A stretch of DNA of 64,000 nucleotides from the NCBI GenBank assembly GCA_040954595.2, contig CM082576.2:2206760-2270759 (forward strand). Direction: 5' to 3'. Within the stretch, counting starts at the first letter, position 1, and each line of letters begins with the position of its first letter. Source of the stretch: Balanoglossus misakiensis. Its lineage: Eukaryota > Animalia > Hemichordata. The notes under the pieces were generated by a model that saw only the letters and a list, made by a program, of their open reading frames with translations, was not told the DNA's origin and searched no databases. Position numbers and translations under genes: made by a program. This document shows, piece by piece, positions 33,590-56,308 of this stretch.

Positions 33590-36500
33590 ATGGCGGACAC
33601 CATGACGGGGAAGAGGCGAACACATGGCAGTAAAAATAAGAAGAAAGCTTGGAAGAAAACTGACATAAAGGACATAGAAGAACATTTAGAAGATGAAAGG
33701 TTACAGTTAAGAACGGGGTGAGTATGAAACATTTGATTATCAGTCACTCAGAGAATGTATACACGTACGTGGATATATTGGTGATGTTGATAACGTGGTC
33801 CACATACGGATATTTTGTGGCTTCAAAGTTCAGAAGACTAGAATCGACGAGGCTACGTGATGCCAGTCGTGCGTTCCGATCGCGCCACGTCAGGAACGTA
33901 CGTAGAGAATAGGGGAGGAACCAAATCACCGACAGGTCCAGGTATGTTAACTCAATGAAGCTAACAATGTCTCATTTTATCTGTGCACTACCAGGGGCCT
34001 TGTGGCTGAGAAGACTGATGAACAACTTTTCTTTGTTGAAAAAAACACAGAAGACAAAACCAGTGGTAAGATAACAATCAACTTCGAGAAAATTAATGTC
34101 AACTTTTGCATTCTTTTAGCCTACATCAATTCCGTCTAAACACTTGTTCTTTCACAATCCATTTTGTGTGGGTTTTAAATCACAGCTGGATTGTAAAGCA
34201 ACTGCACAAGTCATATGTTGAACATTGTGTCACGGTCCATCGTGTAATAAACTTTATTTGTAATGTCATCATTCTTGCAGACACGCAGGGGATTGGTAAA
34301 AAGAAAGCAGACAAACCATTGAGATGTTACCAGCATCTGAATCCAAATCCCCACATTAAACCAGTACCAAAGTAAGTCCTTAAATATAACTCTTCTCAAG
34401 ATTGTTGCTTTTCGTGGCTCGGTAGCAATATTGGCATCTGAGATGAAAGCCTTAAAATGCACTGTTTGGAAATTGCAAAAGTGTTCAGTACAGACACCGA
34501 GATAATTAATTTCATTTCTAATCACCGCATCTCTTGAACAGGCCTACATTGAGAGAACCGAAACAGAAAAGCAAAAGGGTTTTAGAAATCGAAGAAAAGG
34601 AAAAAGAAGGTATTTACACCAAGTCCAAGAAAAGGAAGATGGATGAGGCTAATGCTTTCAAGAAAAAACAGGCGGAAGAAAAGGAACGTAGTAAAGAAGC
34701 AGAGAAGAAGTCGTTTGATTTATGGGGAGATGATGGTAAGGCAGATGCATATGTATCAGTGTGTATACTTGTATTTTCTCCTGGTTAGAGCCCAGGGGTC
34801 TGTACATCTACAATTTAGAAAAAAACTAGGGGGACACACCTTAGTATGAATGAAAATTGCAATATGGCAGAATAGCTGAAAGACACAGACTAAAGAATGG
34901 GACTTGTATACATACCCAATGTATAAGATGACAAGAAACTGTTGCCTATGTCACATGCAGTGTTTTAGTGATGTGGGACGAAATGAATGACACCAGTAAT
35001 GAACGAGGTGGAGTCTTTATAACATATCCCTCTATAAACTTTGTCAATATTTTTCCTTTTTTGTTCTCTACAAAGATATTTTGGTTCCTAAAGAAGTGAA
35101 TAAGAAAACCAAAGCTGAACCCAATGAACATTTCTTGAAAGTTACAAAGAAAACTCGTAAAAAGGTGAGTTGCACAGTCTGTTGTTGGACGTATAAGATA
35201 TACCAAAAGGTTTTAATATGGGTTTATTGACATGGTTTTCCTATCCACACTTTTCTACTGACTTTCATCTCGATTTTTTCCCAGACACACAAGTTATACC
35301 ACCAGAAACCCTCAGGAAGACCAGCAGTAGAAGTCGTAGCGTCAGGGGCATCGTACAATCCAACTTACGAAGACCATCAGGTAATGTCAACAGTACATGT
35401 GATTCCCTTTCGTGCTACTGTGACCTTAACATATCACCACACTACCAATGTCATAAATTATTGTAATTAACCCATATTAATTTTCACGTCATTTCTCAGG
35501 CTCTGCTTTTGGAGGCACACAAAGCAGAAATGAAAAGATTGGATTCTGAAAGAGATTTGAACAAGCAGACAAGTGTTCCTCATGTTGACAGGAGAGTCTT
35601 GCAGGTAAAACTGTTCCTTTTAAGTTGAGTTGAAATTGATGCTTATCTCCATGCTTGTCCCAAAATTTCCGTGTCCCAGTTTTGCTGTCAGATTTTTGGT
35701 TGAAACTGAAATTGATGTCCAGATTCTGAAACGCAAGGGAAAGACAAGTGTGTATATAATACAGTGGCAGTGTTACACGACATCTTCACAAACAGCGATG
35801 ACATTTGATGAAATGACTATTCTGTGAAAATGATTGGGTGCATCGAGTAAAATAAATCACGTATTGTTTTTCTTCTTGAATAGGCATCCTATTTACAGGA
35901 AATGTCGGCTGGTCTGTTCAATGATGGTGATGATGATGATGATGATGATAATGATGATGATGACAGTGACGGTAGAGAGGAGAGAAACAGTGAAGATGAG
36001 GATTCCAGTGACAATGCAAGGCCTCCCAATCCACCAGTCAGATCCGATGGGAGGAAAACATTGAAACAAAGACGTAAAGAAAAAGCCAGGAAAGAAGAAG
36101 TAAGTTTACATGAGTCACAATTTGTGAATGAATATGGATCAAATGTACTCATTTGCAATTTCAGTACTGTGACTAAATGTTTGTTATTTGGATTCTTTTT
36201 TGTATGTAAAATTAAACTGCTTGTCATCATTCCCCATTCAGGAAAAGCAACTGCTGAATGAAAAAAATGAAAAAAGGAGGCTCAAAGATGTCTACAGGCT
36301 ACGAAGTCTGAAATCCGAAATCAACAAAAAAGAGGCACAGAGTGAAATAAAGACACGGAAAAGATTTGAGAAGAGAAATGATCCCAACAGAGTTAAGAAG
36401 ATTGGCAGACAGAAGTATCCTTTTGTCCATTTTATAATTTTTGGCTTCTTGTGTTGGCAGTCACCTGGTATTTTAATTGTAAACACGCAATGAACCATTT

Positions 36501-37152
36501 GTATTCCTTGACTGCTTTTGCCAGATATCAAGCTCCTTTTCTAGAGATCAAACTAAGCAACGAACTTGTACCCAATCTTCGGAAACTAAAGGTGTGTATA
36601 CAAATATTAGTTTTAAAATTACCATGGAAATGAAACGGATAACAATATTTATTGGTATATAGTTCCAGATTTGTCAATGGGAAATCTAGTAGCAAATTTA
36701 TGTTGTCATGTTGTATGGCTGACTGTGCAATGTGCATATACTGATAATTCACCAATATGAACAATGTATTTTTTGTTATCAGCCGGAAGGTAATCTCATG
36801 GATGACAGATTCAAAAGTTTTCAAAGAAGAAACATGATACCAGCGTCAGTTCCTATGAAGTAAGTCAAACTTGCCACAAGCTCTGTTAACGTTTGTCTAC
36901 TTTTTCAGTGTTTTGTTTTCTATATCAACTGCAATTTTTTTGTACCAATCCTAAAATATCACACACCTAGGATTTTGCAATAGTCAGGGGAATTTCAAGC
37001 GTGCATGTTACTGGTAATTAAATATTCATAATCAGCAGTGCTTTGACATTGTATTTCCTGCATAGTAATGCTCTTTATCTTTTCTTTCCAGGCGGAAACG
37101 AAAGTATAAATTGAAAATGGTGGAAAAGAGGAGTCATCGAGAGTTTAAGTGA
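33590..37152 (+). CDS. NOP53: Ribosome biogenesis factor NOP53 (GLTSCR2), multi-exon
   Basis: MADTMTGKRRTHGSKNKKKAWKKTDIKDIEEHLEDERLQLRTG, then LFFVEK, VEVVASGASYNPTYEDHQ, an acidic tract, KYQAPFLEIKLSNELVPNLRKLK, PEGNLMDDRFKSFQRRNMI, and RKRKYKLKMVEKRSHREFK*. Confidence 0.95.
36415..36524 (+). other. U12-type (minor spliceosome) GT-AG intron in NOP53
   Basis: 5' splice site GTATCCTTT. Branch site TTCCTTGAC at 36504-36512, 12 nt before the 3' end. Splicing restores RQK-YQAP. Confidence 0.9.
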
Positions 37153-38306
37153 ATGGTGAGCTGAGAGTGGATTTACCCATCCATTATGCAGACATACTTT
37201 AGAATTGTAGGTTTCTGTGCTTTGAGATCAGTATACTCTTGCAGTGTACTAGAAATGGGGGTTGTAATGAAAGTATTCTAGTTTCTGAAATGACCTATAT
37301 AACAGAACTGTTTCTTTTGTATTGCAGATACAAGTGGTTCATATGATTGTATGAAGCTTGGAGGTCATTTGTGGCATCTGTCAAATATCTCTGTAAAAGA
37401 TGCTCAAATGTATATAAGATTACTTTTTACATTGAAGTGAAATAAATCTTATATCAGTATTTAGCAATGATGCAATGTTTTGTTACGGAAACCAGGAATG
37501 ACATCAAAATGGCCATAACAATATTCCTTTACTTTCTGCGTCCTATGAGGGCGCACTTCCCCCGGGACTGAGCTCACGTTTACAGCTCACACGGGTCCGT
37601 TGACCAGCCTCACTATTTTTTGGAGAAAGGCCTTAGCGGGCGAAGATGCGCGAGATTTGTTTTTGTCGGCGCGTTATTTGTGATCATATTGATATGGGAA
37701 AAGGGGTTATGCAAACTCTCCGGTCGGAAGAGCATCGTGGCAAACCACGACCTCTGCAAGTCTGAGTCTTCTCTCGGGGAAGTAGGACTGGCTCGCGAGA
37801 ATGATGAAGAGGAAATCTGAGGAATCTCTTTTTGTTGTCTAAAGACTAAACCTCGCGCGCATTTAGCAGTGTCGCCCATATGTTTTCAATGTCATAACTG
37901 TCACCAGTGTTAACCATGCATGAAAAATGCTTAATCAGATAATACACACGGAAACAAAATAGTTCAAGAAAAAAAAAAACGGTTTAATACATTTTTCGAA
38001 AACAAGATATAGGCCATATGTATTTACAAAATCTCTAACATAACATCTACGAATCTCTCGAAAACACAAAGATGGACAGAACTAGTATTAAAACTTCATA
38101 TTTCTAGTCTAAAACAAGATGTGTATTTACAATATCTATAAAATGAACTACAAAACGTTCACATAAACGAGAAAGAAAACATGGAAAGTAAAAACGAGTA
38201 AAAAATGTTTGACAAGCAGAGAGGCAAAGAATGACACGAGACACGACGGAAACTGGTCTTGAGCAACACGCGATGAGCAGGTTGAGATGTTCTGCTTGGA
38301 TGACTT

Positions 38307-39325
38307 TCAACAGCTTCTTAGTAGACCGAGATTGCGGGAGGTACAAGTGGTTGACTGTGGCCCGTTGACGAAAAGGCGGCGTCTGGCGCTTGATCTGTCG
38401 TCACGGTCTTCACCAGGGGTGAACACACTCTGCAAAAAAAAAGGCAGGAAGATCGGTGAGGTGAACGCGAGCTATTTTTCACATAGTTTTACATAGGAGT
38501 ACAGGAGTCACATATTCGTCTGGTTTGTGAGCACAAAATAAAAAGCTCGTAGCTCACTCTACGGTCTCTGGTCAAATGACGCGTTCGGCCACTGTCACGG
38601 TCATTCCACGATGTGATGAACGAAATCTAGTCGCATCTATCGAAAGAGTGAAGACTATAAACGGTTATTACAACGGGGATGCACTGTGTACTTACATTCG
38701 CGGTGACGAAAGTCGACATCGGAACAACACGAGCACGGAATTGCCCAGTGACCACACTTGTGTCTTCGTCATCATCATCGGAAGCCGTGTCGGCCACGGT
38801 CGGGCTGCCTGCTGTCTTGCCTTCCTCGCTGGGTCCGCTTGTTTGGTCTCCGTGAATCTCATTGGGGATAATGGTTTCGAGAAAATCTGAAATAGCCAAG
38901 TCAGAATGACAGTGAATGCAAAACTGCTCCAAATGCTCTAAAAAATACCTAGATTTCGCTATGAATCCAAGTTGGTCCATTAAAAGTTACAGTATAACAT
39001 GTAAAGAGCCCCGTAACGAACCGTGGGCTGTGAGAGAGTCCAGGTCGGAAGGGGCTATTCGTTCGAAAAATAATAATTTTCACTTACCAAGTAATGACTG
39101 TCGTTCCTCACAGCTGTCCTCACTGCAACAGCTACACGGCCACCAGTCGTCTTCGTTTTCAGAGCGCCCTGGGGATGGGGGCGCGCCACCGTCCAAGTCG
39201 TCAGCTTCATTTTCGGGCAGCCGGAAAAGCGGGATGTCGGTTGACAGGAACTGGACGCTAAGGTCTGGCAGAGACTGCAAGCTAGAAAGAAAGTCGAAAA
39301 CATCGTTGGAAGTCTGGAAAGACAT
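38307..39325 (-). CDS. Homeobox-cluster paralog A, homeodomain largely deleted, about 183 aa
   Basis: Exons 39088-39325, 38696-38886, 38307-38429 (intron phases 1, 0), open frame. Exon 1 (MSFQTSNDVFDFLSSLQSLPDLSVQFLSTDIPLFRLPE) is homologous to paralog B and has the same length (238 nt). The last exon SVFT...ARRRLFVNG aligns with B's NWFT...VRRRLRFSEKNG. TATA box (TATATAAA on the minus strand) at about 39426-39433. Confidence 0.75.
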
Positions 39326-41443
39326 GGTTATAGAATTTTGATGCGATGATATCTGGAATGCGTCGTGAGTTGCGATCAGGATGGAAGCTAACTCGCTGTG
39401 TGATGACAGGGAGCTAAGGGGTGGGTTTATATACCGTAAAAACAATAGAAATATATACATTCACACTTTTTCAAACAAAACTGACGTTCCGATGGCCTTA
39501 TCACGGATCAAGTATAATGGAATGTGCACCGAATGGAGGGATTACATATGTGTTATTATTGTCGGGAAACTTTTATGTTGGACGAATTCACACCTTTAAT
39601 TAAACAATGCTCCACATAAACACCAGTACCAGCAGACATGGCGACGCCAAGCTCCTGTTCTCGGAATCTCAAGGTGGGCGTGTCCCCAAGATCCGTCACA
39701 ACATGGACGAACGAAGAAGACTCCACAACATGGAAGTTGAGAACTGTCACGACTGGAAGTTGTCTCTGTAGTATATATCACGATTTCCTTCGTATTTCTC
39801 GATCCTGAGTAGGCCCATACTCTGCAGTGGATAAGACGAGAAGGAAGGCGCGTGTAGCACATGGATGAAAACATGAGCAGCGCAACCACGTGTCCAAATA
39901 AACACCTTTGTCCAGAAAAACGTGTCAGACAAAACCTGACTGACAAACAAACAAACAAACAAACAAGTCAAGCCTGTTCTTCTCCAGACGGACCGAGGTG
40001 TGGACTGCTTTCTCACGCCACAGTGGCGCTGTTCTGGAATTCCCTGCAGGAAAAAGACACCTGTTCTGCATCCAGGTACTTCATGTTGCATCAACCACGA
40101 TCGACGTCCGGCGTCCCTCGAGTGAACGGAGGGCGATCACGTGAATCACTAGACAAGCGAGCCCAGTAGTTGCTTGATGTTTACTCATCAAGGGGGGCGA
40201 TCTAAATAAGGGTTAATTTTGAAGGTCAGAGATACTAAGATGGGTTAAATTTTTCGCTTAAAACTTATATATCAGTTTCCATCTCTCAATTTCGATGGTT
40301 TGTGATGTATATTTTGATACAGGCTCACAAAACTCTTCATTCGTGTAATGCTGTCTTTTTGTTATTGTTTACATTCCTGGATCTGGGGAATTCCCGAGAT
40401 TTATAGTTGGAGGTGTCAACCACAATCCTCTTGGTTGCTAATCCTTTGACATCGAGTCGTGTTTTCCTTCGCGGTTTCCCACGCCAAACTGGCTCTCTCT
40501 CTCTCTCCTGCGTAGGACCTCCCCTGTAGAAAAAGCCCCTCCCTGCTGGCCCCAACCCATTCCCCACATGTTATTGCCACGGCTGTAACTATTGAAATAT
40601 ATCTAACTGTCCTAGATTTCGTAAATAAGAAGGTGTTCTTTGGTCTAAATTTCTCCCATATCTAACACAAGGATGTCCTTTTTGTTGAGAAGTCCTGGAA
40701 AAAGTGGCATAGCATCTTACAATTTTGCGGAGCAAGCAAGGATGCTCACTTTCCATGTGTGCGCCACCAGCCGGACTGTTGGGCAAATAATCAAATGCCC
40801 AGCCCTCATAGGCAGAAACGAGCTTTATGTGTTGTGTTCTCAATGCATAAGAATACATGGTTGTGCCTAGCTGTGATGAGACCATGTTTTGATTGAAGTT
40901 CTGAGCATAGGTGCTCCTGAAATGAACTTGTTCGGGGCTGCGGGCTGGTTGAAGAATGGCAAACTATCACACAGAATATGATGGGCTGGGGCCCTGACAT
41001 TTGAAATAAAGAAGGGTGGCAGCGAACCAGAATTTGGGAGATTCATTTTTTCTTCAAATGTCTGGCAGAATGTTCATGTTGTTACCTGCATTCGTGGGTC
41101 TGATCACGATGTATTGCTAAAGGATAAATGAAACAAACGATAACGAGTTTTTTCCAACTGAACAAAATATTTTAATACATACAACAAAACTTCAAAATAT
41201 AACACATTTCTGTACACAATGTGATCTTTCTGATTCGAAGGAAGAGACTACAGACAATTAAACGCGAAAAAAATATTTACAATATTTCATGTAAGTTAAA
41301 AAAATATCGAAGTGTTCAGACGCAGTCAAAGAAGTTTAAGCAGTAAAAGAACAGGATTCCAGAGAAAAACGTTCGTGTGTAAACTCGCATGAAAAAAAAA
41401 TGAAATTGTCTGTTGTCGGAGAAGGGTGACGCGAAGGTTAAAC

Positions 41444-42618
41444 CATGGACGTAAAAAGAGAAGGACTTAGGACTGCAGCTTAAGCCCATTCACACCTATT
41501 GTATTCGCTTTGTCTACGCTGTTCTTTGACGTCGGGTGACCGTTGCCGAAGTCAACGTACACAGTGACACACCCACTCTGGTGCTCTCAGCAGTACTCAC
41601 GAAAACTTGCTGTTTAAGTCACAAAGAAGTGGTAAATTACTGTAAAATTATCACCTTTTTTTGTCTCGATGTAACGGAAATAAAGAAGTGAAAACAGAAA
41701 AAATCGACGCATATTTGACCAAATGGCGAACCGATCTTTATAAGCATGCTAAAAAAACAAGACATTTTAAAATCACTCTCACTTTAAAAGTTCAAGGGTC
41801 CTACGTCTAATTTTTGCATTTTAGAGGAGACGAAGCAATAAACTTTCAGAAAATGTGCGTCTTATATGCAGGAGCACATGGCCATTTTCGCTATCCACGT
41901 TCGGGTTTTGACAATTTTCGCGAAGTGCGGTTACTCTATCGCCATAGGATTACACGTAAACCATCAAAGCATTTTCAAAAACAAGACATTTTAAAATCAC
42001 TCTCACGTTAAAAGTACAAGGGTCCTACGTCTAATTTTTGCAGTAAAGTGGAGACGAAGCAATAAACTTTCAGAGAATGTGCGTCTTATAGGCAGAAACA
42101 CATGGCCATTTTCGTTATCCACGTTCGGATTTTGCCATTTTTCGCGATGTGCGGTTACTTTATCGCCATAGGATTACACGTTAAATGATCGCGTCCACAA
42201 TCGTCGACTTCGAGTGGAATTGCCGGTAAACCAAACGGTGCCTACAATATCTGTTCGATCGGCATAAAACCTTAAATGTATGTTGTAATTTGTGGACTAC
42301 ATGACAAGAGCTACCAGCTTGGCCAAAGATGCAATTCATGTTTTTTTCAGCGTAGATTTGGTGCATACGGGCCAAATCTCCTCGATGGTTCAAAGTCAAA
42401 GGTCACGCACATGCGCATTCCATGCAGCCTGGTGTTTATAAACAGACGGAAACACCCGAACAGTACCAAATATACTACCCGAACCCACTCTTGAATAAAT
42501 TACGGAAGTAATCGGATTAAAGTATTACGGAGTATTAGGCGATAACGGAGCGGCGGCAACGATCACCTGAACAATAGCTCAAAGGACAGTCCGAAGTCCT
42601 TCTCTTTTTACGTCCATG
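41444..42618. mobile_element. Non-autonomous DNA transposon, P-element-superfamily-like, 1175 bp
   Basis: Terminal inverted repeats CATGGACGTAAAAAGAGAAGGACTT(a/c)GGACTG at both ends. A 7-bp target-site duplication GTTAAAC at 41437-41443 and 42619-42625. No transposase ORF. Confidence 0.88.
41755..42181. repeat. Internal tandem duplication (period about 224 bp) inside the transposon
   Basis: AAAACAAGACATTTTAAAATCACTCTCAC...GCCATAGGATTACACGT occurs twice (GACATTTT at 41761 and 41985). Confidence 0.9.
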
Positions 42619-42628
42619 GTTAAACGGT

Positions 42629-43869
42629 TTAGCTGCTCCTATTGACTCCGTTCTTCTCGGAGAAACGAAGACGGCGCCTGACTCTTCGCTCTGCAATGCG
42701 ACGAATGGTGAACCAATTCTGTCAAAGAAAAAAATACCAATTGTGTTATATAAAGGCCGTGATCTACAAGAAAATGAAAATATATAATTTTTCGCATATA
42801 GAAATAAACTTTGACGGTGCGATTGCAGTGGCTATTTTTTTCATTACAAGATGCTGTCAAGATATACAGCGTAGTCCTAACCGTGCCATCGACCACACAC
42901 AAACAAATGAGGTGTGTACTACGACTATTAGCGGGCGGGTGGGCATTAGCAGCTATTAGCCATGAATATAGCGATACAAACAACGAAAACAAACATGGAA
43001 GTGTGACGAAAACATGAGAAACTACTGTAGAAAAACGACATTTGGCAGATACAGTTGTACTTACATTCACTCTCGCATATGAGAGACCTGTGAGGGTCGA
43101 CAGTTCTCGCTTCTCTTCGTGGGTTGGGTGCGGAGTCGTCAGTTTCCTGAACGCTTCCTCCAAGATCTCGCCTTGCCTGGGGGTTGTTGCCGGCGGCCGG
43201 AGTCTGTTGACAGGTGTCCTGACTGTCACCGGGATGGACATCGGAGAGCGACTGACCCGGAAATGGCCAGTGATCGCATCCGTGTCACCATCGTCGCCAG
43301 AACTGCTGTCGTCACTGCCTGCCCAGCCGCCATCACCCCAGTCTCCGTCACTGCGTCCCCTGGTCGTGTCCCACTGTTCGTCCGTGGCGAGATCTGACAC
43401 GGACACTGTTCGAATTCTGTCGTCGTTAGCGCCGCCGTCGAAGTCGCCAGGCGTCATGGTCGCGAGAATATCTGCAAAACAACACCAACAACAACAACAA
43501 CAACAACACATAAATCACAGTTCGTCAAATATGAAGAAAAAAGAGAATGTGTCTGTTTTATTGTCCATCTACGTTCACACATCACTGATTGAATGAGAGC
43601 GAACGTGGAGCTACATGTGATTGAAACTTACCGAATAGATTTTGTTCTAAATCAAAGTCTTCGTCAACAATGCCAAGGGACTGTGTGCTGTCACTTTCGG
43701 AGCGTTGCGGGAGCGATGAGGGCACGACAGCTTCATCATTGAAGTCGTCATCTTCGGCCAATCGAAACGGTGGAATGTCTGTTGTGACGAACTGCACGCG
43801 GATCTCTGACAGGGACTGCAGTCGAAAAGGGATGAACTCGAAGCTTTCGTCGGAAATCTGGAAATTCAT
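42629..43869 (-). CDS. Divergent homeobox gene, paralog B, about 244 aa
   Basis: Exons 43632-43869, 43065-43471, 42629-42718. Spliced homeodomain: RPPATTPRQGEILEEAFRKLTTPHPTHEEKRELSTLTGLSYARVN|NWFTIRRIAERRVRRR, with L16, F20, W48, F49 and R53 conserved. Confidence 0.85.
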
Positions 43870-46800
43870 GGCTGAAGGATGAAAATTTCGATGCGAGGAA
43901 TCGACGCTGTGGTGGTTTTAGCTTTGGGTGGATAGCTGAAAACGTTGTGTGATGACAGGAAGGAGGCACGGGCTATTTAAACCATCGAAACAAAAGAGAA
44001 TGCAAACATTATTACTTTCATAACAAACCCGACATCATATAACACCAGTGAGCGACGTTTTGTTATGATACACCGGTAGACTTTTATGTTTGGATCAAGA
44101 AAGGTGTGAAATACACACAAACAAATGGGATGACGTGAGAATGCCACTCACACTTGTAAACACTACCGACATAAACAAAGGCAGACACGGCGACGCCAGG
44201 CGCTCCTTCTCGGAATCTGGCCCAGGCCATGCAGAAAAAAACATACATGTAATACATGCAGTACTGTACATGTATTGGTTGTTCAGCCAAACCTGTGTAT
44301 TTCATATCAGGTTCAAAATATACTGCTGAGGTTTCAAACAAGTTGCAGGTCTACGGGGCCTGGAACGAAACAGGGTCTTTCCACTCGTAAACAAACATGT
44401 GCGTCCAGACAAACAAACCATTATCAATTACACTTCCTATTTAGACAAATCTGACAAACAAATTTGACAATCGCATCAAGTTTGTGCTTCTTTCCCCCGT
44501 GGTGATCAAAGATCTGCTTTCTCACGCCAGTGTGGCGTTGTTGAAGTACCCACCCAACCCGAAGACGGACCATCCGCCAGTCACCATGACAATGTGTTTT
44601 AGATAGACTGTCACACAGGCTATAACACACTGGGTATGGAGACCAGGCTAAACGCGTATTGGCAAGCAAACACTAACAAAAAGCGTTTGCTTGTCGTGTG
44701 GGCTTTGTTTCAGGAATTCAAGGAATTTTTGGAACACCCCCAGGATTACTCTTTTTAAAAGGTGTGAACGACAATCGTATTAGACATTGATCCCTTGTGT
44801 ACGCTGACCGACGTTTTTTTTTCAAAATTCCCACGCCAGGTGGCGTTCTTGTGTGTCAGCAACAGACCCTCGGCCTATGTTTTCCACCTCTGTCCATCAA
44901 GTGAGGCCTGAAATACTTGTTTTTCACCACAAGCATTTGAATCTCCTCCTATCATAAGAACGTGAAGGGCGCCACCCAAATAACAAAAATCCCAACAAAA
45001 GTGTGTCGTTAGTTTATCGACAGGTGAGGTCGCTGCTGATACTCGCGACAAGTCGGCGAGAACAAATCTCACTCGGTCGGCCGAAACGAGGAAGCATACA
45101 TTTTACCACCGCTGGTGAAAAAGTTTTCGTGTACGCACAACAGGTTGTTTTGGGATCATTTTCTCCAACATTTCTCACAGGGGGTATTTTTGTTGGAAAA
45201 AAATCCCAGAAATGGGTACAATTAACTTGATTTTTTTTTGCTGAACGATCGAGCACGGATACCATTCTCCTCTGAGTGCCACCACCGGTTGAGGGATTGT
45301 TTTACATCCTGTCAAAACAGGTGGAAAAGAGATCATGGTCTAGATAGCCGGACCCCCCTCCCCGAGGAACCCCCCCCCGGGGTCCCAGTCTGACGCAACA
45401 GCGCCACTCAGGCGTGAGAAAGAGAAGCCCTGTGCGCAGACTCATCATGGATCGCCCAAGCTGGCCCAAACCCTAGATAAAGATTCACACCTTGTGGAAC
45501 GCCAGCTGTTCCGTAACTAAGGAAGTCACGCTTCTTCTCATTGTTTATCCCCAGTAAAGTTTAATTGTAAAAAAAAATAATCATATGTGCACCTACGTCA
45601 TCTGTTACAATAGCATTTGAATGACCGATGGAAGTAATATGAAACTCAAGCACTTCATCCGGGTCCTCGCAGTCGAATAAAATCACATAAGCACCAGTTT
45701 ACCTGTAATAAAAACATATGGATTTGAAGAAAGTACTGTAGGCCAACGTACAGACTATGAACATGGTTTACGAATGATTTCTTCATAACATCATGTAGGA
45801 TTGCATTTTTTCGCAAAAATATATTCCTGCTGCCAGGAATGACGTGCGCTGTGTTAGAGGACGGCTTGACCTTCGTGTAAAATATACCTGAGTTTGGCAC
45901 GTACGTTGCGAATTGTATACGTCACAATTAGGAACCTGTGCAAATACTATTCTACATTCTTGTAGCATCGGTTGACGCCCTAAAATGACCCATTTTGTGT
46001 ATGTACTTCGAGGTCGCTCAGTGTGATGTTTTCACACCAACCTATTCAACACTGTTCAAAGAAACTTAGTAAATAGGAGTCTGATCTTTCCAGTGAGGGG
46101 TTATCGAACTCTGCTTAAAGCCACTTTCGTATAGGCTAATGTCCATAACTAATCCCAATCTCGAGAGCTAAGCAGACTACAATCTGCAGGAAGCGTTTCA
46201 ACCGCTATATCATAGGTGTGTCACAGACGTCCTAACCTTTCCGTACACATCACGAAGACCACAGCGGGACTATGTGTATTGAATATAGATCCTCGTTTCA
46301 CCAGAACCTTGAAAATGTATTTGCTTTTGTGTGGATGTTCGTTGGCAATCTGTTATAGCCTTGCTTTCAATCACACGCAGCAGGGACAATATGCTCCATT
46401 TACTTGTCCGGGCCACGGACACTAAACAAACGTCACCATACAAGTGAATGAAGTTGTCAGAACATCACCTGATAGCAAGTCTTTAGTCGCCACCGCGATT
46501 GGCTCTCTGTCCATTCACTCGTCGACAGCGGAGAAAACATTTTCTCGATAAAATTTGTCAAGTATTTCTGGTCAGCTGCGTCCTAAGTTTCGACCATTTC
46601 GACAAGTTTCTGTTATTTGAAAGAATTTTCATGGCTAAACTTACACGCTGCACTTTTGAGCAATGAGGCAACGTATAAACAACTTGATATCGCCACACCA
46701 AGATTTAAATCCACACCACATAAAACAGTCTTCAGAAAATGACCATCGAAAGTGCCCACTCAAGAAAATACGCCTTTATTTCCGACAAGAAGATTTATTT

Positions 46801-47368
46801 TACCTTTACAAACAATTATAAGTAGCACATGCGAAGTGCGATACAATACTACATCCAACAAAACTAATACAACTCACTGACAATTGAACTATTTACAAAA
46901 TAAATGTCAAAATATATGTACAGAAAATACGTACAGAGTAAAATTAGCAGCAAGGCAAGTAAATGAACTGGAGAGAGGGAGCTCAGTACAGAAGAAATTT
47001 GTTTCCAGATACTGTTTGATTTGTAAGTTAGGAATATATTGCTGTTTACTATCGTCAAATTACACCGTGTAACTGCTGGAGTATGATATAAATGGCAGAT
47101 TGATTGGGCCTCGAAAGCGTCCATCCGTCGGAATTGGCGTGTAGTGATATCAGAAGGACTTGGTTATCCGATTCATTTATGTCGTAGATAGTGACACGGC
47201 AATTATGGAGTGACAAAGTCTAGTGTCTAGCTGTGTTTGTCTGCTTTACTCCTAAAACTAAATGACAATGTCCTAGGAGAAGAGGCGTTCGCTGATGAAA
47301 CGAGTGTCTGTAGGCGTGTTTGATGTTCACACTGCTTGTCCAGTGGAGACTGCAGGGTACTGCACACC

Positions 47369-48716
47369 CTATACCGGTCCCGCGTATCCAGGCGCCGGAG
47401 CAACTTGAGCATCTGAAAAGTATATCGGAAACAGTGGTACGTATGTTGACTCCGACCTATGAATATAAGCATCGCGATAGGCAAATTTTGTACCCTAACA
47501 CTACGTTGCTTTACATGTAAACATACGGAATATTGTGTAGTTACTTGGATTACTACCATGAAACATAGCATGGCTTACCAAACCCCACCACCTGTCCAAA
47601 ATAGCTTAATTTTGAACTTACGTGTGACGGTGGTGGTCTTACCAGCGCCACCAGCGGCGCCTGCAGCCGCTCCGCAGCAACAACAGCAGCAAATGACGAC
47701 GAGGATGATGATCAGCACAATGAAACCAACGACGCAGCATACGGCAATTATGATTATGTTCTGCCTATTAAAGAAAAAAAGGAAGGAAAAAAAACATGAT
47801 AAAAACAACTTTTGTCAGGAGAGAAAACACCACAAAATTTATGTTATCAAACCACGTTGCGGATTGCGGAAGACCTGCAGTCAGACAGAGCGGAACGGGA
47901 AGGAGAACGAGAGTTGCCGACACTTACATTGACGAGAGAATACCACCAGCGGCACTACCGCTGCCGCTGAGATAAGTGTTGTAATCGCAACACGTGTTGC
48001 CAGAACAGCAATAGGTATCCGGATATGTGATACACGTTGGGCTGCATATATCCTGGCTTTGTACAGCTGGGGGAGAGAAGAAAACGGTAATGACGTACAA
48101 AGTTTGTGAACTAACACAAGAACTCTTGGCGCTCAAACAGTCGAATGCAGAAGTTTTTAGGGGAAAATGGAGTCGATTTTGGCGATATCGAAACATTCTA
48201 ATTGCTACACACATGTTGCTAAAGCAATGAAGACGTAATGTGTTTGTTTACGTGAAGACGACCATGATAGCTGAATGTCTTGACCATAAAGTTACTGGCC
48301 AATGGCACGAAAATTGTGTCTGGTTCGGTCTGTATGGTCATGAGGTCTTTCTGTATCAAACCTGTTGACATTTCTCCTTAGCAACCGTTGGCTAGAAATT
48401 TGGAGCCTGGGTATATCCTTTAATTATTTCCACTGTACAGCAATATTTGAATTTTAACAACCTTTTAAAATTTAAATTGTCGTGTGTAAATCAATCCACA
48501 ACTGTGAGTTCTGCATGATAAAGTATCTTTTCGCGGCCCACCCGCAGTAACTCTACTGGGAATAGCCTGCTTGCAGTTGAATGTCATCGTGGTATAAGCG
48601 GCTATCAAACCCACAGAACGTTTCGGGGGAGAAAAGAAATACGGGTACTCACCAGCAATAAAGAATACCAAGAAACATAATATACGGATGATTAGGGAAG
48701 CAGTTATTTTACCCAT
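47369..48716 (-). CDS. Small single-pass membrane protein of the Shisa-like/CYYR1/WBP1 type
   Basis: Signal-peptide exon about 48653-48716 (MGKITASLIIRILCFLVFFIA). Six-Cys ectodomain exon about 47928-48067 (DICSPTCITYPDTYCCSGNTCCDY). Transmembrane plus poly-Cys exon about 47621-47764 (IIIIAVCCVVGFIVLIIILVVICCCCCCG). Last exon 47369-47412 (AQVAPAPGYAGPV*). Confidence 0.8.
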
Positions 48717-49828
48717 CTTGACTTTCACGCCAGAAGTCCGTTATGCTTAACAAGTCGTTGCCGCGCGCCGTCAGCCTGGTGTATAACTTGGCAATACAGT
48801 CAGTCAGTTATGTTGCACGGTGCCATAGCAACTTCCACAAAGAAAAACCTTAACTCTCTCTTCAGCACGTCTATTCTCCGCGGTTCAACTTAGCACAATA
48901 GCCCATTGTGATACGAAGAATTCCTTTGCTTTTTTTTCATTCCAAATGAAAGGTCGCGTTCATTTTAGCATTGATACCAACTCTAAATTTGGGTGGCGTT
49001 GATAACTCCTAAACGACCTAGTTCTTGGCGGGCAGGCTAGAAAAATAACTTTCTGTTTTGGAGACTAATTTTGTTGTTAAGGTCTGATGAAATCTATTTA
49101 GGTGCATCAGCTGGTGTTTTCGTCACTGTCCCGCCACCACGCTGAGAGACTAGCGTGCACTGTGGGGGCGCTGTGGTGCGCTTACGGAACAAGACTGTGT
49201 GTGAAGACATCTGCGCACCCACGTGTACAACATCGCAGTAGACAGTCGAATGGCTATGATCGCAGGCGATAAATAAAGACAGAAGAAAATTCGAACGTAC
49301 AAACTAGAAGATTTACACAATGAGGAGGGACTGTAGTAAGTATTAATAAAGGGTTTACGCCACGGGGACAAATGAATGGGGTCACATAAAAGAGGAAATT
49401 CATTGTCTGTGCTGACATGCATCCTAATTTGTTTACCCATGATACATCGGAGCAGATGGCTTTTCTCCGGGAAGCGAGCAACGTTTCCAAATCTTCTCAT
49501 AATAAACCCTTTATTTACTTTTAGTGAGAGCAGCTCACCATGTAAACTGCCAGGTCGGCAGCCTTTACGGTTCTTTACGGTGACAGCCCAGTTATCGTTT
49601 ATAGGAGATTAGCCAACCGCCAACCAATGGCCACTTCGACTGTTTATTACAAAACAAACACAAACACTGAGGGCTTGTATCGCGGCATCGCCTCAACACA
49701 GTGGCTAAATAGTTTCTTTTGTTTTACCGCCGTGAGTTTACATCAAACATCCGCAACAGAACCGACGCGGTTTCGCCACACAGCGGAACTCACAGTCCCC
49801 GGCTAGTATCGAAATCGCCGAATCCGCC

Positions 49829-51089
49829 ATGGACGTCCACCTTGCCGAATTCCTCTGCCAGCCTCTCGACTTCGTCCTCTACAACCGTCAGTCGCTTGAC
49901 ATGGAAGTTGCCATGATAACCACAGGCGTACCTTGGTTTCATCACATCAGCGAACCAATCATCGGCAACAACGATGATGGCGGTAGTGCCGTTGCTGCTG
50001 ATGACGATGACGACGACGACGCTGTAACGGTGTCTTCCCCTGGAGATTCCCGTCGCTCTCAGACACTGCCCTCACAATCAGAGTCAGAAGACACCGACCA
50101 AGTGGTACCAGAAGGTTTCTGTGCGGGTAAGCGCTACACATTTTACTTGTGTTCCACCACATTTCTTCGAATCTATGAGTCCCTCTCGCATTTTCATGGA
50201 TTACATCACTGGGAGCGTCTGGATCATAGACGATTGGACGACATTGGAAAATGTGACAGGGGTCGTTGACTACTAGTATATTCGAAGGACTTTGTTGCTC
50301 ATTTTTCGACTAGTGAAATTGTGTTCTTTGTTTTGTTTTGCAGAAACGCCAAAAGCCTGTCTTCGTCATGTTTACAGACCAAACGACTCTGATCATGACG
50401 TTGTATTGTCCCCGCCTCCGACACCGACCATGGATGCAGAGAACCACACTTCTCCTGTGTCTTTCAGTGTCCATGTGCCGATTCAGAGCAGTGAAGTGTC
50501 CAGTTCTTCGAGTACAACGCATGCGCCAAGCAGTGCGTCTCTTGACTGCGTTGCTACGAAAGAAGAGCCGTCGTCACCAAGGGAGAGAAATAGTCGGTGC
50601 CCACCTCGGTTGTCTTTAATCCCGTCTCAAGAAATAATCCTGGAAGAAGAGTTCACGAACACGACGTTCCCTAACGCTGACGAGAGGCGGCAAATCGCGA
50701 GAAGATCCGGAATTTCGGACAAGACTGTCAGTGTAAGTATCATGTACATGTACATTTCAAAGTTGCCGGACATTCTTGCCTTACATTGTACTGTGATCAG
50801 CGTAGAGGATACATTTTTCGTTTTATCACTGAAATCACAGTCCATTGCCTGTGTTTATATAATAAAAAAATCCTTTCCCCCTTTACTTCGACAGCTTTGG
50901 TTTATATACCGACGTGCACTATCTAGAAATCGCAGACACCACTGGATCACCGCTACCGACTCCTTCATGCCGAGAGTCCAGCCAAGGAGCAGAAGTTATA
51001 GACAGCGCCACCACCGTCCAAATAACGTTTTTGGTATCAGTTCCATGTTATGTGTACCCGTTGGAATTTGCACATTTTGTATGTTTTGA
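49829..51089 (+). CDS. Divergent homeobox gene, paralog C
   Basis: Exons 49829-50126, 50344-50732, and 50895 onward (intron phases 1, 0). Homeodomain: CPPRLSLIPSQEIILEEEFTNTTFPNADERRQIARRSGISDKTVS|LWFIYRRALSRNRR. The N-terminus LDFVLYNRQSLDMEVAMITTGVPWF resembles that of A and B. The 3' end is uncertain: stop at 51089, or a short extra exon ending about 51131. Confidence 0.8.
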
Positions 51090-52533
51090 CATGTCGTTGT
51101 AACTATTAAACCCTTTTCAGAGACGTGGTGATACGGGTCGTGTTTCGAAGGACACGATCTCCAGTTGCGAATCTCCCTGATACTATCGGCGATCAAAATT
51201 CAATGCTCCACGGCTGTGGTGAGAAAAAGTCGCGTCGGATGACACACGATAAACTTCAAAACAGGAATTCTTATCAGACTGGAGAAATAGGTAACACAAT
51301 ATCAAATCTTTCCACGTCGACAAAACATGTTGGCATCGGTATCACACATAGGCCCCGATGCTTACCCGAGACGATGCTTTTCTAAGTCGAGATTTTCTGG
51401 CATGCCAAAAACAACGATGACGACGATGACAATATTTCGGCAATTTTATTACAGTTTTAAGTTTTCTTGACTATTAAGTAGGACACAGAGCACTTTGTGA
51501 TTTCTGAAGACACTATAGAGAGTCCAACTATGCGACCCTAACCAGGACAACATATCTGGCCGCAGGGGGTGCCACACTCGACTCCGGTCAGGGCTGATTC
51601 GAATTGACGCAGCAAGAGTCCACAACCTCAAGCAATCTGATCCAGTTATGTTATTTCAACTTTCTATTGCCGAAATAACACAGCTGTTTCATGCCTGCGT
51701 GCATACGTCGCATGACCTCCACGCAGATATGACACAGTCACATAGAAGATAATATTACGCACATTAAAATTGAAATTTTCTTGAGCGAAGGCTGGACGTT
51801 TTAAAGGCCTGGGGTAATTTTCGATCCCTGATACTGTCATTGGTTCTTGTAGACACTGAGTACTTGTATTTACGTTGTATAAATCCCCTTTCCACTGAAA
51901 CATTTTATCTAATATGTAAAGCCGAAATGGAAGTTGTGCCTTTAAAATGACCTCGGCACACCAGCACCACTGTACTGTAAAAGACCTTGGGAACTGTTTG
52001 TACTACACTCCATGCGGCATTTCAAGATGCCCCGAGTTGATTTCAGCTTCGTGTGAAAATTCACTGCATGATACACACAGGGTATTATGATCAATAAAAA
52101 AACGATTATTGTGGATTTAATAAGAAATCTGACGACATTACACTGTAATAGGCCACTTTCACATTACATACTGGTATTTTGCGGGTATGATATCATACAC
52201 CATTCAACGTTACATTCAATATTTATCTGTTCTTGCAACTGGCAAAATTCAAACTTTTTTTGTTCTAAGATGATTTAGAATCTGCAAATTCAGTAGTATG
52301 TTGATGGTTGCAAAGTTCACACTCGAATGGTAAACTGCCACCAACAAAATGCCAGAATGCATAGGTCATATATAGGGTCACGAAAGTGGCCTATAAATTG
52401 CTCACTTTCTAGAATACGTTACTTTGTTACTTGTAATTTGTTCCTAAATTTAACATTTTAGCTGTTAACAGGCTAGTAAAATACCAATGCTTACATTTTA
52501 CACAATGCAGAATATTCTTGGTGACGTTTCATT

Positions 52534-54051
52534 TTAGAATGATGGCAGGACAAACGATACCGACGAGTTCAAAAGTTGTTCTTGGCTCTCGGCTTTCCGG
52601 TAACCGAGAGTGTTCAGCAGATATGAACAATCGCCGGTGTTTTCAATTTTCTTCACAAGAGCGAACGATAATTTTTGGCGCCAAAATTGTGAAGTTTCTT
52701 TCGAGTTTCGCTTAGTCGCCCAGGCGTAATAGATGTCGCTGGCGTTGTTGTCCTGCTTCGTATTTTCGTCAATCCAACGTTTGACGTTATCATGAACCTC
52801 TACCCCGAGAAATTTGTAGACGTTTTGTATCGTGCCGATGGGATCTTCCGACAGGTCTTCATAACGGACGGCCATGTAGTTACCTTTTGGCAGTCTCACG
52901 GCGTGCTTGCTGATAAGTACATTTCTCAACATTGTAGTGCAATACAGATCGAGCCTCCGCAAGAGTTCCTCGTCGAATTGGGTTTCGTTGAGCTTTATGT
53001 CCACCTCAGATTTTTTCCTGGCTTGCCAGTTGCTTATATGTATAGGCATCACGGATGACATGACACCTCTTGGGTCGCGAATCAAATTGATGATGCGGAG
53101 ATTAACATCTGGGTCGTTCACAAGATGAAGGAGGGGAAACACGTCGTATACCCTAATCTCCTTGACAACAACCTTGTCGAAGATCCGGCAAGATTTCGAA
53201 GCTGCCTCTGGCGTCATAGGCACGCACTTAGCGAAAATCTTTCCCCTCGGATTCCAGCCAGAGCAGAATTCGTCGGTCACCCATGCCCGCACGACGTTTG
53301 TCTTGGCCAGGGGTGAAACCGGATTGTACAAATTGTCCAAGATGGTCCTCGCAATTCCCGAGTAGTTGCATTTGTAAATGTCGTGAAGCAGTTCCGCTCC
53401 TCTCACGGTCAGCATGGGGTCATAATCGTTCAAATAGAGTCCTTTCGGAGGTTCAAAAAAATACAAAAACTTCGGATGCCGATTGAACATCTCTCCGAAG
53501 AATGAAGACCCGGTTCGCATGCTGGCCATGACCAGAACGTTCAATCTCGATGTCACGTTGATTGCAGCATTTTCGGCGACTTTTCCAGGGAGCTGGGTCG
53601 GGACGAGAAAACTCTTTTCTTTGATCTGTTCTTTCAGAAGATTTTGACTTGAGGTCAGGTTTTGCATAAGTTTGTGCAGTATCTCCATACTACTGTCGTG
53701 GTTATTGCGAATAAGTTCGAAGAGGTCCATGACGTTGCGTTTCGGGTCGTTTGCCGCCAAATGCTCGACTACGGCGCGCAAAGACTCTTTGACATCGGTG
53801 AGATCTTCGTGCACCGGGTTGGGTTTGGGGGTACGATATGGATCCTCATAGCTCAGGCCGCCATACATGCGTTCGGAGATTTCGGGCCCGCCGCCGCGGT
53901 CTTCCAGAATCGGTTCACGTATCCACAAAAATATGAGGATGACGTTGAATGCGACGAGAACAAACAAAATCGTGGTCGTTTGTTGAGAACGCATACTGCC
54001 AATGCCCTGACCGACTGTCACAGAAACCCTCCACATAGGCTCCTGGTACAA
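52534..54051 (-). CDS. Golgi carbohydrate (GlcNAc/Gal-6-O) sulfotransferase, CHST1/3/5-like, intronless CDS
   Basis: 505-aa ORF with a type II transmembrane segment (ILFVLVAFNVILIFLWI), a 5'-PSB motif (NVLVMASMRTGSSFFGEMF), YFFEP, a 3'-PB motif (IINLIRDPRGVMSS) and VRYEDL. The exact start Met is uncertain. Confidence 0.93.
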   Translation of the reverse strand: MYQEPMWRVSVTVGQGIGSMRSQQTTTILFVLVAFNVILIFLWIREPILEDRGGGPEISERMYGGLSYEDPYRTPKPNPVHEDLTDVKESLRAVVEHLAANDPKRNVMDLFELIRNNHDSSMEILHKLMQNLTSSQNLLKEQIKEKSFLVPTQLPGKVAENAAINVTSRLNVLVMASMRTGSSFFGEMFNRHPKFLYFFEPPKGLYLNDYDPMLTVRGAELLHDIYKCNYSGIARTILDNLYNPVSPLAKTNVVRAWVTDEFCSGWNPRGKIFAKCVPMTPEAASKSCRIFDKVVVKEIRVYDVFPLLHLVNDPDVNLRIINLIRDPRGVMSSVMPIHISNWQARKKSEVDIKLNETQFDEELLRRLDLYCTTMLRNVLISKHAVRLPKGNYMAVRYEDLSEDPIGTIQNVYKFLGVEVHDNVKRWIDENTKQDNNASDIYYAWATKRNSKETSQFWRQKLSFALVKKIENTGDCSYLLNTLGYRKAESQEQLLNSSVSFVLPSF

Positions 54052-55247
54052 AACGAGTCTGCGCAGTTTAATATTAACTCAAGTGTCGTGTCGTGCACAA
54101 GAACGAGACTCGAGCAGGAATGTTTGAAATATATGTAAATGGATATACATACATGTATCATGTAGATAGATAGATGGTCGGTGTATTACTGCACTGTTAT
54201 GATTTGTAGGGCTTGGAGACCAAACCTACCAGACATGAAGCCCTATTGGTTTTGATACAGTTGTTCTTCTTCCCATTTTCTTCTTCCGCCAATTCTTGAA
54301 CAAATTCAGCCTGGAACTATAGAACCACATGATGCACACTTCTCAAACGTAACCAATCAGTACTTATGCGCCTAACTCTTGAATTTATGATCTTTTATTG
54401 CTTTCGATGGATTAGTATCTTTTATTAGTCAAATAACGTTAAGTCTTATAACTGACCCACATATAATATATATGCACGGGCATAAATACAAGTACATGTA
54501 CTGTATATCATTTCACAGCACGCCTTTTTAGACTAGCCCGCTAAGCAATGTTGTGCGTCACTTCGACGGTGCCAGTCAATTCCCCCAAAAACTGAAGACG
54601 AAAGGGCCTGTTTTTGAAACTGTGGACACGGATGGCGCACTACTGTACCCAAAAGCAACCCACTTGACAGAATAATTTTTCAGGCCCATATATTGTAATA
54701 TATGTGATTTAACCTAACCTAACCTTAACTTTTGTTAGATTTCATTGTATCAATGTTAATTAGTCAAAGACTTAACCAATTTCTATAACAGATTAATGTC
54801 ATAGGCACAACTGAAACATTTTAAATCTTACTACAATAACTAGTACGTTTTACAAAGCAAGAACTCAATGAGAACTCATGACAATAAAATATCAGAACGA
54901 ACAACAGACGGGAACAACATATTTTCCATCACTTCAAAAGTACAAAATCCCCCTTTATCGTCGGGACAAGGTGAGTTTGGGCGATATTGATGCATTATGA
55001 AGTGCGCTACTGTCAGCCCAAAAGAGCTTTTTTAAAAGTTGTTTTGGCAGCCAGGCCTTAGGCCTAGCTACTTTGGAATCGTCGGGAAACAATCTCAGGC
55101 GTCTGCTCTCACATCTAACTGGGTTAGCAATAATTTTCCCCAACCCTTTCTCGGGAAATAATTCGATAAACGTGAAAAGTTACTCGCAATTCGTCCTGCA
55201 CTTGCAAGAACTGCGTCGCCAAGTGAGAGCGTTGGTTCATAGATAAA

Positions 55248-55259
55248 TGCGCATGCGCA
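55248..55259. promoter_or_regulatory. NRF1-type palindrome in the SAMD15 promoter
   Basis: TGCGCATGCGCA about 30 bp upstream of the ATG. A similar ACGCATGCGCA lies at 58132-58142 before ACBD3. Confidence 0.6.
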
Positions 55260-55285
55260 CAATGCGATAGCAACCAAAAACAAAA

Positions 55286-56308
55286 ATGGCGCAGCAGATG
55301 GCCGAACCGAACTGTCTGCATTGGAGTTGTGACGATGTTGCAGACTGGATTGAGCAACTAGGTTTTCCACAGTATAGGGTAAGTATTAAGCTTAGTTTAG
55401 TGTAAGAAACCAACCCACATTAAAGTTAAACCGAAAATTAAATATTGAGTTTGTGCCTTTACCAAAACTTGTCCAACCACTGTGGTTCAAACACAGACAC
55501 CCGCAGCAGGGATGCAGATGGAAAACACACTTCCGTGTTACATGTTGCATTCATTTATTTGGCGTGAAATTCCGACCCAACTTGTCGCTCCCTATCTAGC
55601 CCTGCTCCACATCCTTTCTAATATGTATTGTCTTGGCACAGTCACTACAGTTTTCCCAAAGACAACTTCAACACTACACTACACTACACTACACTACACT
55701 ACACTACACTACACTACACTACACTACACTACACTACACTACACTACACTACACTACACTACACTACACTACACTACACTACACTGCACATGCTACTTTA
55801 TGCGACACAGAGTGTGTGTGTGTGTGTGGAAAGTGAAAGTAAAACAAGTACAGAGTTTTGGCATTTTCTTCATATTCGTCTTTCCAGGAGTGTTTCACCA
55901 GGAATCTGATAAACGGAAGAAAACTGATTATAGTTGACTGTTCACATTTGCCACTGCTTGGAATTACAGACTTTGAGCACATGAAGGTAAAGTAGCTCAG
56001 CATTCATTGCCTTTGCTGTGTGTTTGAGAGAGATTTTACTGCAATATGAAGTTTTTAATTTCACAGATTGAAGAGCAATGCAGATACCTTCAGTATCAGA
56101 CTGTTTATACCAGAGTTCAGTTGTACATCAAAACAGGCTGAGAAGAAGCATGGTACTGCCTTTTATGGAACCGCCAAATTTTCCACACAAACAGAACCGT
56201 GAAAAGTTACATGCAAGAAGAGCAGCCAGATGAACATTCTCTGTTGTTTCACTGTTGATCCTTGTTTCTCAAGACTCTCTTTTTCAAGGGGCTGTGATGG
56301 TCATGTAT

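Follow-up and report, generated by a model that had tools for sequence, protein, structure and literature searches.

Within a 64,000-nucleotide stretch of the genome of the hemichordate Balanoglossus misakiensis (GenBank assembly GCA_040954595.2, contig CM082576.2, forward-strand positions 2,206,760 to 2,270,759; hereafter the window, numbered from its first letter), three genes (A, B and C), each intact and built of three exons, are duplicates of one homeobox gene. What is new here is the loss of asparagine 51 (Asn51) in both remaining homeodomains, those of B and C, the deletion of the homeobox in A, and the presence of conserved BMP and Su(H)-type elements in the promoters of A and B. The set is a lineage-specific divergent homeobox cluster, a kind already reported in hemichordates (PMC4729200). 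Judged from titles and abstract openings, the literature searched, from which most subscription papers fell outside, appears to hold no paper on this family. We tentatively regard the three proteins as nuclear cofactors that would work via an N-terminal motif and not by reading TAAT sites, with A and B probably under BMP/Smad and Notch/Su(H) input, and we rate this combined proposal somewhat short of an even chance.

The gene models themselves are firm. Each has three exons with intron phases 1 and then 0 and is free of internal stops, and all six introns have a GTAAG donor, a CAG acceptor and a pyrimidine tract, with lengths of 160-346 nt. In phase 0, the pattern x-W-F-x-x-basic-R comes right after only two of the window's 3554 YAG sites, and these two open exon 3 of B and exon 3 of C. 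A six-frame scan of the window found no fourth copy. An earlier note, made from the DNA letters, had proposed the three genes; its coordinates, strands, intron phases and three quoted motif sequences were all correct on re-check.

Homeodomains of B and C

The splice models and the Pfam match on exon 2 bear out the earlier claim that the homeodomains of B and C are split between codons 46 and 47, the remaining quarter opening exon 3 in both genes. The profile check proposed in the earlier note succeeded in part: B and C match the Pfam homeodomain at E values of about 1e-4, but exon 2 alone, which holds a partial domain (the first three quarters), scores 22.4 bits in B and 22.6 bits in C, 0.3-0.5 bit short of the cut-off of 22.9, and A gives no match, its domain of about 60 residues and three helices being gone. 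Both B and C keep Gln12, Leu16, Phe20, Pro26, Val45, Trp48, Phe49, Arg52 and Arg53, and thus have the core of Leu16, Phe20, Trp48 and Phe49 that serves as a signature of the homeodomain superfamily (PMC4901127). Asn51 is replaced in both, by Ile in B and by Tyr in C. This is the adenine-reading residue, and homeodomains without it show very divergent motifs (PMC3371834); it is described as invariant among 346 homeodomains (PMC2211742). From residue 51 only, we infer a possible HOPX-like loss of sequence-specific DNA binding in B and C.

Downstream of the homeodomain, C carries an EH1-like heptapeptide, found among 11 motifs tried and matched by 0.7% of whole-protein shuffles under a strict pattern and by 4% under a loose one. 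C may recruit Groucho via this C-terminal peptide, which we treat as a lead. EH1 motifs at the C-terminus are known from other proteins and evolve convergently (PMC1310626).

These features could also belong to true sequence-specific transcription factors. B and C would then be products of a fast-evolving PRD-like expansion of the Phb/Pmar1 or ETCHbox type, acting in the early embryo with shifted DNA specificity, the motif would be a domain for activation or for cofactor contact, C would repress through its EH1 peptide, and A would be a copy that is either dominant-negative or dying. The 46/47 intron, the intact hydrophobic core, the basic helix 3 and the EH1-like peptide in the tail of C are in line with such factors, as are the compact genes with TATA-like promoters, and the best solved-structure matches of C are DUX4 and PRRX2 (weak, E 0.2-0.7). 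In addition, Phb expansions are tandem and early-expressed (10.1101/2023.10.30.564762), and a phb1-related sequence has been reported from Saccoglossus (PMC4709884). On the other side, Asn51 is gone in both proteins, Arg5 is gone in B, and position 50 is Thr or Ile, not Gln or His; TCF sites are not enriched upstream of the genes; and none of 373 candidates from the sequence libraries is a close relative of the B and C homeodomains, although this is weak evidence.

Activation activity finds little favour in the composition of the proteins. A published rule for acidic activation domains demands a 39-aa tile with a charge of -9 or below and a W+F+Y+L count of at least 7, above the diagonal (PMC10550315), and none of the three proteins passes it, the best tiles (charge/WFYL) being -8/12 in A, which fails by a single charge, -12/6 in B and -4/10 in C; the true-positive rate of the revised predictor is just 0.2-0.3 (PMC10550315). 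The earlier suggestion of an interaction or activation motif therefore stands in so far as the family has a constrained motif of its own, and loses ground on activation. Overall, we consider transcription factors with shifted specificity a somewhat unlikely account of the cluster.

A separate observation concerns the second intron of C (50733-50894, plus strand), which is 162 nt long, in frame and stop-free, so that exon 2, intron and exon 3 form a single open reading frame of 270 codons, and retention would add 54 residues inside the recognition helix. The predicted fold of this read-through stretch is uninformative, with a predicted local distance difference test score (pLDDT) of 47.5.

Gene A, selection and the N-terminal motif

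The DNA shows A to be a duplicate of B from which an in-frame deletion removed the homeobox. The homology between the two genes spans promoter, exons and splice sites. In the DNA alignment, exon 2 of A lacks two in-frame pieces that B has, of 63 nt and 153 nt; loss of the longer one took nearly the whole exon-2 part of the homeobox and spared the splice donor.

The ratio of nonsynonymous to synonymous divergence (omega, or dN/dS) between A and B, at a synonymous divergence (dS) of about 0.9, differs along the gene. With the GY94 method on a DNA-only alignment, omega is 0.26 for the motif (p=0.0026, 37 codons), 0.34 for exon 2 (p=0.005), 2.3 for exon 3 (p=0.15) and 0.61 overall (p=0.028); with NG86 on a codon alignment, the corresponding values are 0.24, 0.32, 0.93 and 0.41. 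The N-terminal motif of A and B is under purifying selection, and the recognition-helix exon is not. A dN/dS near 1, which the earlier note had named as a sign against a functional family, is thus seen in exon 3 (0.93-2.3) and not in the motif or exon 2, both significantly below 1. Insertions and deletions between A and B are multiples of three in 7 of 7 coding cases as compared with 6 of 13 non-coding cases (Fisher p=0.044), a count that leaves out one 15-nt gap in exon 3, an artefact of unequal alignment end-points. Under a synonymous clock, omega on the B branch is 0.11 (p=0.005).

These values bear on whether the genes are simply decaying, A as a young pseudogene and B and C as copies drifting without maintained function. 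An Asn51 change has been taken as a possible pseudogene sign in human SEBOX (PMC2211742), A has no homeodomain, omega on the A branch is not significantly below 1, and the overall A/B values of 0.41-0.61 could be read in the same way. Decay is nevertheless at odds with three open frames and six canonical introns at this dS, with omega significantly below 1 in the motif and exon 2 and on the B branch under the clock, with coding indels that keep the frame and with conserved promoter blocks, and we find it quite improbable. A is probably functional, judging from its sequence, though it could be a recent pseudogene.

Hydrophobic residues abound in the motif, an acidic tract follows it, and it is similar among the three proteins: its alignment score was reached by 0 of 5000 shuffles for A-B, 1 of 5000 for B-C and 13 of 5000 for A-C, and 9 of the 47 columns of the three-copy alignment are invariant. 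The motif searches of sequence libraries advised in the earlier note detected no relative. Pfam gave only DUF4435 at E 0.13, NCBIfam and the Protein Data Bank (PDB) gave nothing credible, none of 104 candidates from a 5.8-billion word search was a relative, Atlas yielded nothing credible (top score 0.75), and none of 86 stretches on metagenome contigs was related. Two matches from a 1.84-billion profile search were rejected as repetitive proteins whose score was summed over 6 stretches. The power of these searches is limited at the divergence of A or C: leave-one-out profiles scored 38.7, 25.0 and 20.4 bits (E 9e-5, 1.7 and 45), with 25 bits for A and 20 bits for C when left out, so that relatives as distant as these could escape, and the blank searches do not prove that the motif is absent from other acorn worms.

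Short linear patterns offer no simple label for the motif. The WRPW, CtBP, SIM, LxxLL, YPWM and OAR patterns have no match in A, B or C. Matches to the LIR-like and F-(D/E)-F patterns lie inside the motifs of A and B; because they are missing from that of C, they are not the feature common to the family. The predicted fold of the motif is uninformative (pLDDT 62.5, predicted template modelling score 0.18).

Promoters of A and B and a possible mechanism

A and B are probably controlled by BMP/Smad and Notch/Su(H) signals via predicted sites in their upstream regions. Aligned over 708 positions, the roughly 800 bp upstream of the two genes show 54% identity, and short blocks within them reach 84-90%. 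One of these blocks, at 84% identity as compared with the 54% background, contains the strict composite element GRCGNC-N5-GTCTG. This element occurs twice in the 64-kb window, once in each of the two promoters; 0.2 copies are expected in the window (15-nt form), and 2 of 100 shuffles reach two. It is the pMad/Medea element, of which 385 occur in the fly genome, and it can act as a repressor or an activator depending on context, being activating in vertebrates (PMC9508838). The predicted element alone cannot tell activation from repression of A and B.

Su(H)-type sites are concentrated in the same regions. The form YGTGRGAA occurs 5 times upstream of B (0.42 expected, 0 of 200 shuffles), twice upstream of A (0.26 expected, 6 of 200) and not upstream of C, so that the regions upstream of A and B account for 7 of the window's 12 sites. 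Each of the 6 copies of CGTGRGAA in the window falls in the 1.6 kb that precede A or B; for the cluster, 0.91 copies were expected, and 0 of 200 shuffles reached the count. The top 8-mer common to the two upstream regions is CGTGAGAA. Four Su(H)-type sites abut a GC-rich inverted repeat, and the conserved block upstream of A has its homologue at 44514-44542 upstream of B. TATA-like and initiator-like sequences lie 80-125 bp before the start codons, the TATA-like site of C at 124 bp. As with TCF, sites for IRF and CRE showed no enrichment upstream of the genes. The joining of Notch and BMP input on one enhancer has precedent in the fly (10.1101/036038).

Other sequences were observed in these upstream regions. 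An NF-kB-like palindrome at 40385-40395 is found upstream of A and not of B, and GAS/STAT-like TTC-N3-GAA sequences at 39658 and 44207 share a conserved block beside the BMP element in A and B, GAS sites not being enriched overall. Repeats of TTGTTTGT are common to the regions upstream of A (5 copies, about 39930-39970) and B (3 copies, 44390-44470), and we presume them to be candidate Forkhead-type sites or simple repeats. That a transposon gave rise to the upstream blocks seems unlikely, as the blocks are short and collinear between A and B and, within the window, show no homology on their flanks.

Because the homeodomains of B and C lack Asn51 and the domain is lost in A, a protein-binding cofactor role appears likely. 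In the mechanism that we propose, A, B and C would be expressed and their N-terminal motif would dock on a partner protein. The homeodomains of B and C would have a weak hold on DNA or an altered specificity, and their main use would be as a protein-binding fold, as in HOPX; A, which has the motif and lacks a homeodomain, would compete with them for that partner or buffer it; and C could recruit Groucho via its EH1-like tail. An extended version appears doubtful to us: function would have shifted from the homeodomain to a new docking motif of 35-40 residues, and BMP and Notch would act jointly and directly on A and B, which in turn would feed back on dorsal or neural patterning as decoys or cofactors. 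As part of that version, and equally doubtful, C, B and A might be snapshots of one series, from a full domain without Asn51 and with an EH1 tail (C), through a distorted domain (B), to a deleted domain with the motif kept (A).

Several observations weigh against the cofactor proposal or the signalling input attached to it. The basic charge of the homeodomains (+6 in B, +5 in C), with Arg52 and Arg53 in both and Arg5 in C, makes DNA binding with a new specificity possible. Omega on the A branch is 0.40 (p=0.076) under the clock; without the clock neither the A nor the B branch is resolved, and the C branch is saturated. A simulated neutral gene stayed stop-free in 4%, 15% or 36% of cases depending on the assumed distance. 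The promoter motifs came to notice only after the fact, from 12 motifs scanned in 6 regions, and, since the elements of A and B come from one ancestor, they are not independent origins. Window-wide, YGTGRGAA is not enriched (12 sites, 9.8 expected). Four of the Su(H)-type sites also overlap a TNGCGTG core, which we take to be of the AhR/ARNT type. Further, the 1.1 kb upstream of C contain none of the 12 tested motifs, and intron 1 of C has only a relaxed BMP element, at chance level (3 in the window, 1.5 expected).

Lineage-specific homeobox expansions, hemichordates included, are usually assumed to encode DNA-binding transcription factors. If the extended version is true, a homeobox gene would have become a homeodomain-free regulator, independently of HOPX. 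Across this small series of genes the recognition helix decays or is lost by deletion and the motif and promoter elements stay constrained; if confirmed, the series would show a route from homeobox gene to cofactor or decoy. The cluster also offers candidates for direct control by BMP together with Notch, in a phylum on which the understanding of deuterostome axis evolution depends. If the genes encode ordinary divergent transcription factors, their value lies in an undescribed family and motif.

Origin, genomic setting and known systems

A PRD-like origin of the family is favoured by its gene structure. An intron between homeodomain codons 46 and 47 is found in many PRD genes, HOPX and LEUTX included (PMC2211742), which supports the earlier note in calling it typical of such genes, though it may not be exclusive to them. 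The alliance with PRD draws on the intron and not on sequence, where C weakly resembles DUX4 and PRRX2 and B weakly resembles Meis and Pbx; the joint profile of B and C gives a mixed class signal, and the solved-structure matches of the two are all weak (E 0.02-1.1). Pfam finds no paired domain in A, B or C, and pattern scans find no N-terminal EH1 or OAR motif; many PRD members also lack these. None of 598 metagenome stretches was related to the homeodomains of B and C, Atlas returned generic homeodomain clusters only (scores 0.79-0.82), and a search with exon 3 of B matched only designed repeat proteins. The earlier view that no named family fits has thus held, with class signals mixed between PRD and TALE, and its proposal of a lineage-specific homeobox-derived family with an N-terminal motif of its own is supported, as the family is narrowly distributed and fast-evolving and its motif is constrained.

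A TALE (Meis/Pbx-like) origin, which would be a hemichordate parallel of the spiralian TALE expansions and is partly compatible with the other readings, draws on 15 of the 17 solved-structure matches of B (Meis, Pbx/Exd; top Meis2, with 13 of 30 residues identical, E 0.021) and on Ile50 in C, as in MEIS and TGIF, but is the least probable of the explanations considered, since the 2-residue insertion in B itself biases local alignment toward TALE sequences, the three-residue TALE extension of loop 1 is not present (2 extra residues in B, 0 in C), such insertions arise repeatedly (PMC4901127), Pfam finds no MEIS or PBC domain in any of the three proteins, and the genes have two introns as compared with the 10-11 conserved in Meis (PMC3140891).

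Table 1. Positions of the genes, domains, motifs and predicted promoter elements in the window
Feature	Position	Strand	Details
Gene A	38307..39325	-	183 aa; exons 39088-39325, 38696-38886, 38307-38429; duplicate of B without homeodomain
Gene B	42629..43869	-	244 aa; exons 43632-43869, 43065-43471, 42629-42718
Gene C	49829..51089	+	293 aa; exons 49829-50126, 50344-50732, 50895-51089
N-terminal motif of A, codons 1-38, then acidic tract	39212..39325	-	alignment; A/B omega 0.26
N-terminal motif of B, codons 1-39	43753..43869	-	alignment
N-terminal motif of C, codons 1-41, most divergent of the three	49829..49951	+	alignment
B homeodomain positions 1-46; 2-residue loop-1 insertion, Pro5	43065..43208	-	Pfam PF00046, E 1.1e-4
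B homeodomain positions 47-60; Trp48, Phe49, Thr50, Ile51, Arg53, Ala55	42677..42718	-	
C homeodomain positions 1-46; Arg5 kept, no insertion	50595..50732	+	Pfam PF00046, E 9.5e-5
C homeodomain positions 47-60; Trp48, Phe49, Ile50, Tyr51, Arg53, Leu55	50895..50936	+	
EH1-like heptapeptide, C residues 275-281, candidate Groucho-binding motif	51030..51050	+	pattern match
End of A exon 2, site of in-frame 153-nt deletion (B about 43072-43224)	38696..38710	-	DNA alignments
A exon 3, degenerate recognition-helix remnant; Trp48 replaced, 2-codon insertion	38307..38429	-	omega 0.93 and 2.3, no sign of constraint
Strict BMP/Smad composite element, about 310 bp upstream of A start codon	39633..39648	-	exact consensus match
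Homologous strict BMP/Smad composite element, about 315 bp upstream of B start codon	44182..44197	-	exact consensus match
Conserved block upstream of A; Su(H)-type site 40010-40017 beside GC-rich inverted repeat	40005..40033	-	A/B alignment
Second Su(H)-type site upstream of A	40476-40483		motif scan
Five Su(H)-type YGTGRGAA sites upstream of B (44134, 44519, 44828, 45172, 45413)	44134..45422	.	
TATA-like and initiator-like core promoter of A	39394..39435	-	matched in B at 43943-43981

The cluster (Table 1) lies in a region of distinct composition. The ratio of observed to expected CpG is 0.89-1.06 over positions 36001-56000 as compared with 0.33-0.68 elsewhere, among flanking housekeeping genes, and GC content rises to about 44%. 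The high ratio across some 20 kb suggests that the cluster sits in a domain with little germ-line methylation. The flanking genes carry the Pfam domains Sec10_N, TTL, Nop53, sulfotransferase and ACBP. A single-exon gene resembling carbohydrate sulfotransferase 1 (52534-54078, minus strand) has five best relatives, all hemichordate, with identities of 67% in Ptychodera flava, 55% in Glandiceps talaboti and 46% in Saccoglossus kowalevskii; on this one gene, the window probably stems from an enteropneust near P. flava (family Ptychoderidae) but distinct from it.

Between B and C lies a small multi-exon gene, divergent from C and unrelated to the family (47300-48712, minus strand). It encodes a membrane protein with a signal-peptide-like start, an extracellular part rich in Cys, a single transmembrane segment with a run of Cys at its end and a short Pro/Tyr tail, which we take to resemble VOPP1/WBP1/Shisa-like proteins; Pfam gave weak unrelated matches only on the one exon searched. 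Just past the stop codon of B starts a 39-nt inverted repeat (95%) with arms at 41437-41475 and 42587-42625, 1.1 kb apart, which enclose a 208-nt tandem duplication (41753-41960 and 41977-42184) and possibly mark a small mobile element. Two elements like miniature inverted-repeat transposable elements, a 352-nt near-palindrome (90%) at 29851-30202 and a duplicated palindromic element at 5281-5727, lie amid the flanking genes, and a long ACACT pentanucleotide microsatellite occupies 55671-55784.

Several known systems share parts of this organization. Species-specific tandem homeobox clusters have been described in Saccoglossus kowalevskii (10, 12 and 5 genes) and Ptychodera flava (7, 4, 8 and 10 genes; PMC4729200, Extended Data Fig. 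4). These are like A, B and C in phylum and in being lineage-restricted tandem duplicates; the figure legend, on which the comparison is based, is silent on an N-terminal motif, loss of Asn51, a homeodomain-less copy and promoter elements. HOPX, a divergent PRD-class cofactor that does not bind DNA, shares with B and C the 46/47 intron and a degenerate recognition helix, and it is a single-copy human protein of 73 aa that consists of the homeodomain only (PMC2211742), whereas B and C have 244 and 293 aa. The loop-1 insertion is 1 residue in HOPX and 2 in B. Unlike HOPX, the family has an N-terminal extension of 170-180 aa that carries the constrained motif, which A keeps without a homeodomain.

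The echinoderm Phb/Pplx/Pmar1 genes (Micro1, Hbox12) are likewise ambulacrarian, paired-like, tandem and fast-evolving, with EH1 motifs gained and lost. Pmar1, however, has two EH1 motifs and Gln50 (His50 in Pplx), whereas B and C have Thr50 or Ile50 and no Asn51, and one EH1-like peptide occurs in C and none in A or B. Similarly, the eutherian ETCHbox genes (ARGFX, DPRX, LEUTX, TPRX and PARGFX) are tandem and rapidly diverging PRD derivatives, LEUTX with the 46/47 intron, and their paralogues can be antagonistic; they are mammal-specific duplicates of CRX with a very short first coding exon, whereas exon 1 of A, B and C is long and carries a constrained motif, so that the likeness is an analogy only. 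Finally, the homeodomain-less isoforms of Meis/Hth resemble A in keeping an N-terminal module without a homeodomain, but they arise by alternative splicing of one gene and retain the Meis domain, whereas A is a separate paralogue formed by genomic deletion, and its motif has no Pfam match.

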